The notes beneath the pieces were generated by a model. That model ran no database searches and was not told the origin of the DNA. It worked only from the letters and a program-made list of their open reading frames with translations. Positions 8,870 through 36,190 of a DNA stretch of 64,000 bases are shown here, in pieces; position 1 is the first letter of the stretch, and each line of letters opens with the position of its first letter. The position numbers were made by a program, and so were the translations under genes. Source of the stretch: a virus (taxonomy: Duplodnaviria > Caudoviricetes); IMG/VR virus record IMGVR_UViG_3300035501_000922; one strand, 5' to 3'.

Positions 8870-9397
8870 ATGAATACAACAGTAGAAAATATGAAAATTG
8901 AAGAAGGCGTTCTTGTTGAATGCCTTGATAAAACCGTTACAGAGGTTTCAATACCTGAAAATGTAAAGGAAATTGGTGCCAATGCATTTTATGGCTGTGA
9001 CAGGTTAAAAACTGTCATAATACCCGAGGGTATAACAGTAATTGGTAGAGGGGCATTCTCGCGTTGCAGTTCTCTCTCAGAGGTTTCAATTCCTAGTAGC
9101 GTTGAATATATTGGTGTAAGTGCATTCATGCGTTGTGGTAACTTAAAATCTATTACAATACCTAAAGGAGTAATAAGTATCGGACCTGCTGCATTCTTAC
9201 ATTGTGACTCCCTTTCAGAGGTTTTAATACCTGAGGGGGTTGAGTATATTGGAACTAATGCATTCTTAAGTTGTCCGAACCTCAAGACAGTAAGAATACC
9301 CAAGACGGTAACGAAACTTGGTATGGCTGTATTTAATAATGGTACCAAAATCATTTGTTGCCATGAGTTTGATAGCTTTGGCCATCCTAAGATATAA
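8870..9397 (+). CDS. BspA-type LRR protein 3
   Basis: IEEGVLVEC N-cap plus LRR_5 repeats. Confidence 0.92.
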   Translation: MNTTVENMKIEEGVLVECLDKTVTEVSIPENVKEIGANAFYGCDRLKTVIIPEGITVIGRGAFSRCSSLSEVSIPSSVEYIGVSAFMRCGNLKSITIPKGVISIGPAAFLHCDSLSEVLIPEGVEYIGTNAFLSCPNLKTVRIPKTVTKLGMAVFNNGTKIICCHEFDSFGHPKI

Positions 9398-13951: not shown

Positions 13952-15176
13952 CAAAATTAAAAATTATACTTTTTAGAAATTTCTACCCATGATGCTTTAT
14001 ATTTTATATTATATATTTTTGATGCTGGTATGTCCAGTTGTTTGGATATAACTGATACTTTAATGCCTTTCTCTAGCATAGTACATATATCTTCTGCTAA
14101 TTTAGAATCTATATGCCTTATTATATGAAAGTCATATTCACATGATATATCTGTCCAGTTTAATCCACTTCGAATATTACGAACCGTTGGTTTAGGTACA
14201 CTGAGTAATTCAGAAACTTCACTAATATTATATCCAAGCTCTAAATATTCACATATGTTTCGAGCCATCTCAATATCAATATTTTTTTTTGTTGAAAATG
14301 TATAATTACATGAAATAGATTTCCAACACGTTCGATTTTTTATATTCTGGACTGTTGTTACAGGTATATCAAGTTTACTGGCTATATCTTTAACTCGTTC
14401 ACCATCCTCAAGCATTTGACATATTCTCTCAACGGTTTCATTGGTATTTTTAGCTACAGGGCATTCCTCACCAACTCTTCGTAAACCTGTTTTTATAGCA
14501 TGAGAATTATTATGATAAGCAGTACACCATTCCAAATTTGTAACACTGGGATTTAATTTGTTGCCATCAATATGATTAACCATAGGAAAGTTGTGTTTGT
14601 TATCAAGAAACGTACTTGCAACTATTCGATGAAGACTAAAAGTTCTGGTTTTTTTAATACCATTTCGTTCACCATATAAACCAACTGAATAATACCCCGT
14701 ACTATTAATCCAACAAGGAACATTTTTCTTTAATTTATGGTCATAAATAATTCCATTTTCGAAGACTTCATAACGTTTTTTCTGTATACATGGGTAGTTT
14801 ACATATTTACTTTTCATTTCATATTTTTCCTTTCATTTTTTAATGAAAAGTTAAAGTATAATTTTTTAATTTAGACTATATCTTCGATGCATATTCTGTC
14901 ACCAAATATACATCGCCTTCCGTTTCGGATTTAGAAAAATCCTACTCTACTCACTTCTTCACTTAAGTATTTCTCTTAAGCTATGCTTTCGATAGTCGTT
15001 GAACTCACATCCATAAAGGATGCTTCGTTGCGTCGATTACTACATTAATAACCTTTTTACTATACCTTTGGAGTTACCCATTGCCACTATTATATTACTA
15101 TAATAATTTAGTAGTTATTAATTACGTAGTGTTCCCGCAATTAGAAAGGTTACGTAGCCAAGCTTTAACTAAGTTA
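13952..15176 (-). mobile_element. Group I intron in DNA polymerase carrying an HNH endonuclease in P9
   Basis: P1 CGUAGU/GCUACG; AATTGCGGGAAC, GTTCAACGACTA, AAGATATAGTC; terminal G; splicing restores DRS|QANEKINMNSYYG. Confidence 0.9.
13957..14817 (-). CDS. Intron-encoded HNH homing endonuclease with C-terminal HTH repeats
   Basis: LHRIVA...VNHIDGNKLNPSVTNLEWCT...NNSHA; three HTH-like repeats. Confidence 0.9.
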   Translation of the reverse strand: MKSKYVNYPCIQKKRYEVFENGIIYDHKLKKNVPCWINSTGYYSVGLYGERNGIKKTRTFSLHRIVASTFLDNKHNFPMVNHIDGNKLNPSVTNLEWCTAYHNNSHAIKTGLRRVGEECPVAKNTNETVERICQMLEDGERVKDIASKLDIPVTTVQNIKNRTCWKSISCNYTFSTKKNIDIEMARNICEYLELGYNISEVSELLSVPKPTVRNIRSGLNWTDISCEYDFHIIRHIDSKLAEDICTMLEKGIKVSVISKQLDIPASKIYNIKYKASWVEISKKYNF

Positions 15177-24695: not shown

Positions 24696-24742
24696 CATTA
24701 GTAATGAATAAGAAGGTCATGGGAAGAGCTGGTTACTTCGGT
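24696..24742 (+). CDS. rpoC: Beta-prime subunit 47-nt micro-exon 2 (bridge helix)
   Basis: Encodes (S)LVMNKKVMGRAGYFG, aligning to GARKGLADTALKTANSGYL. Confidence 0.85.
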
Positions 24743-25091
24743 GTGTAATATTCGCCGGGAATATATAGTAATATATATTCATGTACTCTCTTAATTGCTG
24801 GGAACTCTTGCTAGGTCATTAGTACTACGTGTAATAATCTAATGAATAGAGACAATCAGCAGCCAAGACTCTTTATAAGAGTAAGGTTCAACGACTATCG
24901 AAAAGGTATCTATAATAGAAATATCATAGAGAGTAACTGAGTAGAGTAGGATTTAAGTAAATCCGAAATGGAGAGCTTCCTATATTTGGTAATAGAATAT
25001 AGGAATGAAGATATAGTCTAGTATCCTATGGAGACATAGGGAAGTTCATAAGAGAACTGTATAGAATTAACACTTCTATATGAATAAAACG
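24743..25091 (+). ncRNA. Group I intron 2 of beta-prime subunit (ORF-less)
   Basis: P1 UUCGGU/GCCGGG; P, Q, R, S elements; terminal G; in-frame junction YFG|KIVLLLAR. Confidence 0.9.
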
Positions 25092-35021: not shown

Positions 35022-35112
35022 GCAGAAATACCCAAGAGGCTGAAGGGAGCGGTCTTGAAAACCGCCAGCATGAGTAATCATGGCGTGGGTTCGACTCCCA
35101 CTTTCTGCGCCA
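35022..35112 (+). tRNA. tRNA-Ser(TGA)
   Basis: Cloverleaf, loop CTTGAAA, long variable arm, G73-CCA. Confidence 0.92.
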
Positions 35113-35215
35113 TTTATTATTATAATGATGAGTAGTATTTATGCTACTCATCATTTTTACTTAAAACATATACATAAAAATGATATAAAATATATCAAGA
35201 AAGGTTGTGTTTTAT

Positions 35216-35446
35216 ATGGCAAATAATTACATTGGTTCCACAAAGTACGTTGACTCAGCAGACAAGCTTACATCTGATTTTGGTTTTAATGGTGATATTG
35301 CATTTGTTGTTGAAACTTCCGAAGATGATGAAAAGTCTATTACTGGTCAGTACACCAAGTATGATGGAGAGTGGATTTCTGTTTCTGGAGCATCTGCTTC
35401 ATCTAGTACAACTCCACTTGACAATGTTGATGATGAAGACGTTTAA
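35216..35446 (+). CDS. Small protein paralogous to fibre N-terminus
   Basis: GFNGDIAFVV...GQYTKYDGEW matches GHNGDIAYVI...GQYHKLNGGW; late promoter 35165-35176. Confidence 0.75.
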   Translation: MANNYIGSTKYVDSADKLTSDFGFNGDIAFVVETSEDDEKSITGQYTKYDGEWISVSGASASSSTTPLDNVDDEDV

Positions 35447-35529
35447 AATTAATAAAGAAGAAGAATAGATGTACTATTCTTCTTCTTTTTATATAATAAA
35501 ATATTATTATAGTAACTTTATTCTAATGA

Positions 35530-35601
35530 GCGTCACTGATGTAACGGCTAACATAGGAAACTTTTAATTTTCATATCCGAGTTCGATTCTCGGGTGACGC
35601 A
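35530..35601 (+). tRNA. tRNA-Lys(TTT)
   Basis: GCGTCAC/GTGACGC acceptor, loop CTTTTAA, TTCGA; no encoded CCA. Confidence 0.8.
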
Positions 35602-35616
35602 TTCTTTTAATAATTA

Positions 35617-35706
35617 GCAGAAATACCCAAGTGGTTAAGGGAGCGGTCTACTAAACCGCCAGCATGAGTAATCATGGCGTGGGTTCGACTCCCACTTTCT
35701 GCGCCA
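35617..35706 (+). tRNA. tRNA-Ser(ACT)
   Basis: Near-identical body to tRNA-Ser(TGA); anticodon loop CTACTAA. Confidence 0.85.
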
Positions 35707-35753
35707 TTTATTTTTAATTTAACAATAAACTTAATTATAAAAAAGATAAATAT

Positions 35754-35842
35754 GCTCCTATGGCGAAATTGGCATACGCAAAGGACTTAAAATCCTTCGA
35801 TTGAAATATATCGTACCGGTTCAAGTCCGGTTGGGAGCACCA
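35754..35842 (+). tRNA. tRNA-Leu(TAA)
   Basis: Loop CTTAAAA, variable arm, A73-CCA. Confidence 0.92.
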
Positions 35843-35845
35843 TAA

Positions 35846-36027
35846 GCTAGATGACATAGAGTAGGATTGGATGTTCGGAAGGCGCACCAAAGATCCTTAC
35901 AAACATCTAGCAAGTCTTCCTGTTAGAGCCGATGGGCACTGACCCGAGCGTAGAGAAGCCGGTAGTTCAGTTATGTTTCATCGGCATTATGTCTCAGTGA
36001 CTGGTTCAAGTCCAGTCTGAGAAGCCA
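35846..36027 (+). ncRNA. Unknown structured RNA ending in T-arm/acceptor minihelix plus GCCA
   Basis: GC-rich island, stems GCTAGATG/CATCTAGC and GCCGATG/CATCGGC, ACTGG-TTCAAGT-CCAGT, 3' GCCA then terminator. Confidence 0.6.
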
Positions 36028-36039
36028 TTCATTTTTTAA

Positions 36040-36080
36040 ATGGGGGCTTGTTGATATATTGCATATCAACAAGCCCCCAA
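36040..36080 (+). terminator. Hairpin/terminator after RNA cluster
   Basis: TGGGGGCTTGTTGATAT/ATATCAACAAGCCCCCA. Confidence 0.7.
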
Positions 36081-36114: not shown

Positions 36115-36190
36115 TGGGTTATAGCCAAGAGGTAAGGCAACGGACTTTGACTCCGTCATTCCGCAGGTTCGAATCCCGCTAACCCAACCA
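36115..36190 (+). tRNA. tRNA-Gln(TTG)
   Basis: TGGGTTA/TAACCCA acceptor, loop CTTTGAC, CCA. Confidence 0.9.

Follow-up and report, generated by a model that had tools for sequence, protein, structure and literature searches.

A tRNA-like orphan element in the operon trailer of a jumbo phage, possibly a processed relic of tRNA and group I intron parts

Two small RNAs that are not tRNAs, RNA C and RNA D (rnaC, rnaD), are encoded at the distal end of the bacteriophage T4 tRNA cluster; they are the stable RNAs of species 1 and 2. Both occur as discrete RNAs late in infection and have no known role (PMC3014915, PMC9697503). The rnaD gene starts 1 nt after tRNA-Arg and rnaC starts 6 nt after rnaD; rnaC ends in a true T arm beside an acceptor-like 3' strand, before the end of the cluster, and in its predicted fold only three pairs join its ends, so that it would be an expanded tRNA-like molecule of 139 nt. 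Maturation punctuated by tRNA-like structures has further parallels in MALAT1/mascRNA and in sponges derived from tRNA spacers (e.g., 3'ETS-leuZ), where a tRNA-like module beside an RNA could steer RNase P and define the ends of that RNA. These systems comprise cloverleaf-like modules or unstructured spacers, never a bare acceptor/T minihelix. In the laboratory, minihelices have long served as substrates of RNase P, of the CCA-adding enzyme and of several synthetases; to our knowledge, no earlier case exists of a natural bare acceptor/T-arm minihelix that is encoded as such. Finally, theta ribozymes are minimal HDV-like ribozymes that gut phages carry at tRNA 3' ends, frequently that of tRNA-Leu, with a proposed role in tRNA 3' maturation, and CCA is encoded in only 4.5% of the associated tRNAs (PMC10879173).

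The element described here lies behind a tRNA-Leu gene in IMG/VR record IMGVR_UViG_3300035501_000922, of which a stretch of 64,000 nucleotides was analysed as a whole (the window). The window derives from an AT-rich jumbo phage of gut or rumen Clostridia. It contains split multisubunit RNA polymerase genes with distant likeness to those of AR9, PBS1 and LPJP1, as well as a CHAP endolysin whose nearest relatives are found in Ruminococcus and Oscillospiraceae metagenome bins, and group I introns are numerous in this phage. Six tRNAs were called in the window by ARAGORN and Rfam (Table 1). From tRNA-Lys onward, the first terminator is the one at 36041, with none before the element; given that tRNA-Lys, tRNA-Ser, tRNA-Leu and the element lie together between terminators, the element forms the last part of the Lys-Ser-Leu unit, and it would be co-transcribed with the three tRNAs as an operon trailer. 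The initial annotation had placed its start 3 nt after the tRNA-Leu CCA, and this is correct.

Table 1. Features of the tRNA region and of the element, in positions of the window.
Feature	Position	Strand	Remarks
tRNA-Ser(tga)	35022-35112		own terminator
Small ORF	35205-35468
Terminator-like hairpin	35454-35488		ends the unit preceding tRNA-Lys
tRNA-Lys(ttt) and tRNA-Ser(act)	35530-35706	+	first two genes of the element's unit; tRNA-Lys starts at 35530, tRNA-Ser(act) is 35617-35706; ARAGORN, Rfam
tRNA-Leu(taa)	35754-35842	+	CCA encoded; directly 5' of the element; ARAGORN, Rfam
Spacer	35843-35845		3 nt, between the tRNA-Leu CCA and the element
Element	35846-36027	+	182 nt; begins 3 nt past the tRNA-Leu CCA
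Module 1	35846-35911	+	hairpin domain; 8-bp closing stem (35846-35853 with 35904-35911), then an unpaired A; fold z -3.45
Group I core motif	35857-35884	+	junction plus P7.2 5' strand (12-mer); P3 3'-strand-like 9-mer
Linker	35914-35920	+	candidate pseudoknot with apical loop 35877-35883; 7 pairs, one G-U
Module 2	35928-35990	+	7-bp closing stem (35928-35934 with 35979-35985), then a 5-nt trailer; fold z -3.11 (folded as 35924-35990)
Module 3	35991-36027	+	tRNA minihelix, 37 nt; fold z -2.85
Acceptor-like stem	35992-35997 with 36017-36022		6 bp
T stem	36000-36004 with 36012-36016		5 bp; preceded by a 2-nt UG bulge
Module 3 loop and end			canonical 7-nt T loop; then A, G73 and CCA
Intrinsic terminator	36041-36079	+	17-bp stem, T-rich tail; 13 nt past the element
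tRNA-Gln	36115		own terminator
Endolysin	36273
tRNA-Met	37107

The tRNA region is dynamic, with a duplicated tRNA-Ser and an assembly variant that does not have 35123-35616. The two tRNA-Ser copies are 93% alike and differ in their anticodons (tga and act); the second has A34 within a split codon box, which is unusual. In the Logan assembly SRR11793812 (L011 4607-4707), both tRNA-Ser genes (window 35022-35122 and 35617-35716) are fused, so that the small ORF, tRNA-Lys and one tRNA-Ser are missing while the element is kept. This arrangement reflects natural recombination or else a collapse in the assembly.

Reading of the sequence recovered every stem that the initial annotation had named, at the place it had given. 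These are the closing stem of the first domain, the candidate pairing of its apical GGAAGG (35877-35882) with the linker downstream, the closing stem GCCGATG/CATCGGC of the second domain, and a 3' module that consists of an acceptor-like stem, a canonical T arm and CCA, without D or anticodon arms. The closing stems of the three modules are all perfect (8, 7 and 6 bp). The probability of a chance match is estimated at ~0.01-0.02 for the pairing between apical loop and linker, and a second possible long-range pairing, of 6 bp, can be read between 35854-35859 and 35987-35992. Modules 2 and 3 meet within a direct repeat of 10 nt (35971-35980 and 35987-35996, one mismatch), which may be a rearrangement scar. 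At 0.49-0.50, the G+C content of the element is tRNA-like; nearby spacers have 0.18-0.29, and the introns of this phage 0.34. Each module folded alone reaches a lower z (Table 1) than the adjoining true tRNAs (-1.8 for tRNA-Leu and -0.8 for tRNA-Gln), and the entire 182-nt stretch has a fold z of -2.1. The element is thus a real structured feature for which composition does not account.

The 3' module forms a true acceptor/T-arm minihelix. Its G+1 faces an A as a mismatch and is followed by six pairs and then by the five T-stem pairs, so that 35991-36027 presents a 7+5 acceptor/T stack with a canonical T loop, discriminator and CCA. It corresponds to a tRNA gene from which positions 9-48 have been taken: G+1 after a U, the 5' strand of the acceptor, the position-8 U, the T arm, the 3' strand of the acceptor, G73 and CCA are all retained. 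Its T arm and the one in the adjacent tRNA-Leu differ in a single pair, changed on both sides. Module 3 therefore looks like a tRNA of which the acceptor stem, the T arm and CCA are left. The stems of module 1 or module 3 occur in none of the 212 tRNAs of the fetched loci.

Compared with the described systems, the element is closest to the T4 RNAs. Like rnaC and rnaD, it is a non-tRNA segment of a phage tRNA cluster which abuts the last tRNA of its unit and has a tRNA-like 3' part. In rnaC, however, the two ends of the molecule are joined, whereas the acceptor stem of the element is local and belongs to a free-standing minihelix of 37 nt that is preceded by two unrelated hairpin domains; moreover, CCA is encoded in the element and not in rnaC. 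A covariance model built from the element (R1) revealed no homology to rnaC or rnaD, as it matched only the T arms of T4 tRNAs (E 0.8-3). The element is an unclassified orphan, best grouped with the tRNA-like RNAs associated with the T4 tRNA cluster. It shares with 3'ETS-leuZ its place in a tRNA-Leu trailer before a terminator.

Known RNA families were searched in and around the element. Rfam 15 gave no match on the element even at E<=10, and the matches listed at that threshold lie on tRNA-Leu or on the terminator hairpin. No tRNA cloverleaf with D and anticodon arms was found within 35846-36027 (ARAGORN; Rfam RF00005, E<=10). A tmRNA, including the permuted form, was rejected by the absence of any ARAGORN call and of any match on the element to the tmRNA clan at E<=10; a tmRNA pairs its 5' and 3' ends into a tRNA-like domain and has a tag reading frame and pseudoknots, and the acceptor stem of the element is local instead. 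Likewise rejected was a split or intron-bearing tRNA with a distant 5' exon, as the 7-mer that would pair with the 3' strand of the acceptor occurs nowhere suitable. Bacterial Y RNA-like molecules (YrlA) combine a Ro-binding stem with a tRNA-like domain and lie beside an rsr (Ro) gene. There was no match to them on the element in Rfam at E<=10, and the neighbouring genes that were scanned encode a tail-fibre-like protein, an endolysin, dUTPase and SbcD, none of which is Ro. Rfam, ARAGORN and the fold z scores thus agree with the initial description of a structured, non-coding and tRNA-adjacent segment that matches no known RNA family.

Searches for homologues returned nothing beyond the element itself. 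Other copies are present on contigs from three other samples, all of them 100% identical; samples with the phage are JGI 3300036769 and 3300043080 and SRR11793810-12. No match was obtained in 50,697 phage records searched by blastn or by exact and degenerate patterns in IMG/VR, among them an exact 25-mer from the minihelix. A first scan of JGI/ENA metagenome contigs and two scans of GTDB genomes gave no homologue, and a second scan of JGI/ENA metagenome contigs gave host-type tRNA-Leu genes alone. R1 produced T-arm noise only when run on ~70 fetched loci and on five whole IMG/VR records that share the tRNA-Leu motif of the element, two of which are jumbo-sized and likely the nearest relatives. 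Three neighbouring genes were used as leads to relatives: the 244-aa ORF gave identical copies and distant matches of ~30% identity only, the endolysin gave unrelated prophages, and the 87-aa ORF gave nothing. As no homologue was found in the searched collections, there is no covariation to draw on.

The two jumbo-sized records, G001 (250 kb) and G003 (219 kb), are likely the closest relatives of the window phage in IMG/VR. A piece of the RNA polymerase beta-prime subunit in G001 is 71% identical in amino acids to that of the window phage, and we infer the kinship of G003 solely from its near-identical tRNA-Leu. The position after tRNA-Leu is variable between them: it is occupied by nothing but terminators in G003 and, in G001, by an unrelated segment of ~300 nt, rich in G+C, in place of the element. 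Homology between this segment and the element was considered and rejected, since the two share only four short colinear words, which are insignificant. The segment itself (L009 1700-2010) is non-coding, lies between tRNA-Leu and a strong terminator, and contains nested long-range pairings with a fold z of -2.2; it has no match in Rfam and no homologue in the fetched loci, and is a candidate second orphan RNA.

Module 1 resembles the group I introns (RF00028) of the window phage, which are IA2-like and share with it a 12-mer and the P3 3'-strand-like segment that follows. The 12-mer (35857-35868) is common to the phage's own introns at 14938(-), 24942(+) and 29162(+), the last of these copies having a single G-to-A change permitted by the search pattern, and the 9-mer at 35876-35884 is common to module 1 and the intron at 14914(-). 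For both words, the number of matches expected by chance is far below 1. The 12-mer, followed by GAAA and a purine-rich strand, is also seen in group I introns of other, unrelated phages in IMG/VR, and it is invariant except at one position in an alignment of seven sequences (the element, three introns from the window phage and three from other phages). When the intron at 24733-25041 is aligned to RF00028, the motif falls in an insertion between P7 and the 3' strand of P3 (P7.2, then P3'). The shared motif and its placement by Rfam lead to the conclusion that module 1 holds ~30 nt of a group I core inside a new 8-bp stem. Compared with a group I intron, these ~30 nt are all that is present, as P1, P4-P6, P7, P8 and P9 are absent, and the element is not inserted in any gene. 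A complete catalytic core (P3-P8, P4-P6 and P7 with the G-binding site) was not detected, there being no RF00028 match on the element at E<=10.

Module 2 resembles a tRNA-Leu gene of the relative G001. This phage carries the same Lys-Ser-Leu module, in which a group I intron of ~640 nt, carrying an HNH endonuclease ORF, interrupts the anticodon loop of tRNA-Leu(UAA); the acceptor of this tRNA is of a common gut-Clostridia tRNA-Leu(UAA) type that often bears an intron. The split gene (L009 916-1640, which is IMGVR_UViG_3300032038_000001 at ~49.7-50.4 kb) has no encoded CCA and was overlooked by ARAGORN and Rfam alike. The closing stem of module 2 is identical to the acceptor of this gene (L009 916-922, 1630-1644) in 6 of 7 pairs, and the seventh pair differs on both strands and is thus compensated. 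The discriminator A and the four nucleotides after it are also the same (5/5 nt), so that 11 of 12 positions match along the 3' side of stem, discriminator and trailer. The estimated chance of this stem-plus-trailer match is ~3 in 10,000, with the comparisons made allowed for, and the two stems and trailers are probably homologous. In the interior of module 2, a 9-mer (35948-35956) is common to the G001 intron and a 6-mer to the variable arm of the G001 tRNA; they stand in the right order, although each is insignificant alone. Module 2 therefore looks like a collapsed tRNA-Leu gene that has kept only its acceptor stem, its trailer and remnants of its interior.

Altogether, the element seems to be a mosaic of recycled tRNA and group I intron parts. 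Decayed tRNAs had been named at the outset as the finding that would undo the proposal of a new RNA, and they account for it in part: modules 2 and 3 look tRNA-derived, while module 1 holds a fragment of an intron core. The best explanation, to which we give a probability of about one half, is that the element is a processed relic, a trailer derived from tRNA and intron sequences that would be cut into small tRNA-like RNAs. This estimate is based on its absence from both relatives, its scrap-like make-up and the dynamic tRNA region. The source of module 1 would be a P7.2-P3' core fragment of the phage's own IA2-like introns, and that of module 2 a Clostridia-type tRNA-Leu(UAA), the type which bears a group I intron and HNH ORF in G001. 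Speculatively, a host-type tRNA-Leu gene, the target of an HNH intron as in G001, may have collapsed through imprecise repair, and the divergent tRNA-Leu now upstream may have taken its place. RNase P recognises a coaxial acceptor/T stack with a 3' RCCA and prefers U-1 and G+1. Combined with the features of module 3, these preferences predict a cut at 35990/35991 and trimming to the CCA. In the proposed pathway, the element would be co-transcribed with the three tRNAs, RNase P would read the 12-layer acceptor/T stack of module 3 and cut between U35990 and G35991, and the 3' end would be trimmed to the encoded CCA, which would release a 37-nt minihelix RNA and a piece of ~145 nt with modules 1 and 2. 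Rather than dedicated RNAs, these products are more likely side products of decaying genes and of repair around the target of a homing endonuclease.

Several observations stand against a relic. Decay amid AT-rich spacers should lower the G+C content and break pairs, and the stems are perfect instead; two of the differences from the presumed tRNA sources are compensated. Intact stems would fit either selection for structure or a very recent origin. In addition, what the element shares with tRNA-Leu and with the introns are short words (9-12 nt), spotted post hoc. A dedicated function, taken overall as a decoy or chargeable minihelix or as a small RNA punctuated by RNase P, is a tentative reading held below even odds.

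The form of dedicated function that survives best is a tRNA mimic, in which the CCA-ended minihelix, alone or with modules 1 and 2, would act as a decoy or sponge or be aminoacylated, with host toxins that modify or cleave CCA ends, the CCA-adding enzyme, RNase P and EF-Tu as candidate targets. The T loop, G53-C61, the position-8 U, U-1/G+1, G73 and the encoded CCA are all intact; the perfect stems, the high G+C content and fold z scores that beat those of real tRNAs point the same way, as does the T-stem pair compensated relative to the neighbouring tRNA-Leu. Lys, Leu, Gln and Met tRNAs, the types that neighbour the element, are frequent targets of host anticodon nucleases, which also counts for a mimic. 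However, no homologue is present in the two nearest relatives or the other sets searched, the acceptor stem is mismatched at 1:72 (G-A), and none of the known minihelix identity sets is recognised in it (no G3-U70 and no G-1). Furthermore, if a tRNA gene suffered a recent internal deletion, the intact features would be inherited automatically, and a mimic is on balance unlikely. The fuller version, in which a free minihelix with CCA is a toxin decoy or a chargeable anticodon-less RNA and the pseudoknotted domains upstream are its scaffold or sensor, is very unlikely, and the decoy and chargeable-RNA roles are pure speculation.

Alternatively, the minihelix may be no more than a handle for RNase P, fixing the 3' end of a functional small RNA of ~145 nt, whose 5' end would be set by 3' maturation of tRNA-Leu. 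The layout of tRNA, 3 nt, modules 1 and 2, minihelix and terminator fits such a processing cassette, modules 1 and 2 are individually stable, and the 145-nt piece has a candidate 7-bp pseudoknot between loop and linker and would be compacted by the pairing of 35854-35859 with 35987-35992. Against this, both long-range pairings are only marginally above chance (estimates of ~0.02 and ~0.07), there is no conservation and no identified target, and the modules resemble scraps of other genes; a cassette of this kind is unlikely.

The initial annotation had also suggested a tRNA-trailer ribozyme. Such a ribozyme might be HDV-like/theta or a mini-ribozyme derived from a group I intron, and would free the 3' end of tRNA-Leu by self-cleavage. 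An HDV-like fold was tested for in view of where gut phages carry theta ribozymes, namely at tRNA 3' ends, often behind tRNA-Leu, with the cleavage site within ~5 nt of the tRNA. The element resembles them as a structured RNA starting a few nucleotides (here 3 nt) from the 3' end of a phage tRNA (PMC10879173), and its pseudoknot-rich topology partly echoes theirs, with stem 1, the loop-linker pairing, module 2 at the place of P4 and the possible 6-bp pairing as a P2-like helix; it also contains group I core sequence. On the other hand, a brute-force descriptor search of 35830-36045 (P1 of 6-8 bp, a short P3/L3 abutting the 3' strand of P1, a 2-bp P1.1, P2, and a catalytic C at the start of J4/2) gave no solution that cleaves near the tRNA end or 35846, and there is no match to an HDV family, another ribozyme or group I introns in Rfam at E<=10. 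The element is three times longer than theta ribozymes, its helix lengths and junctions are far from those of the HDV-like family, and the nested double pseudoknot of the descriptor was not recovered. CCA is encoded in this tRNA-Leu, whereas it is encoded in only 4.5% of theta tRNAs (PMC10879173). For a mini-ribozyme of intron origin, the ~30 nt of core come without P4-P6, P7, P8 and the G-binding site. The theta/HDV-like idea did not survive these searches, and self-cleavage of either type is highly improbable. Last, the reading that there is no real feature and that the stems are chance pairings in a spacer would agree with a whole-stretch z of only -2.1 and with the lack of homologues, but it has negligible probability given that the three modules separately outfold nearly all of their shuffles (0, 0 and 2 of 200 as good for modules 1, 2 and 3), that a canonical T arm and an encoded CCA are present, and that the G+C content is double that of the neighbouring spacers.

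Should the minihelix RNA accumulate, it would be the first natural case of such a minihelix, as far as we know, and would provide, in a phage very far from T4, a structural cousin of the long-unexplained RNA C and RNA D. If the element is a relic, it would record the collapse of a phage tRNA gene targeted by an intron homing endonuclease and its replacement by a divergent paralogue, with the addition of pieces of an intron core. Either way, it is a caution for annotators that not every G+C-rich and well-folding trailer of a phage tRNA operon is a new ribozyme.

Further unusual tRNA loci were encountered among the fetched sequences. A metagenomic phage contig (L061 3790-4200) carries a Clostridia-type tRNA-Leu(UAA) gene without CCA, with a long non-coding stretch 3' of it and a trailer that starts with the same four nucleotides as that of G001. 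Two 41-kb viral contigs (L019 at ~9130-9240(-), and L020) have a tRNA-like gene beside tRNA-Leu with an insertion of ~35 nt in the anticodon region, which received no ARAGORN call in L019. In L054 (1204-1556), two tRNA-Leu(UAA) genes stand in tandem ~350 nt apart, and the spacer between them, not called by ARAGORN, contains a T arm and the 3' strand of an acceptor with the matching 5' strand downstream, in the order of a permuted tRNA-like or two-piece tmRNA-like gene. Finally, a block of 36 nt in tRNA-Gln(UUG) is identical between the window (36122-36157) and a locus of a relative (L008 9592-9627) and is also present in 16 IMG/VR contigs; this block is probably host-like and may aid host assignment.
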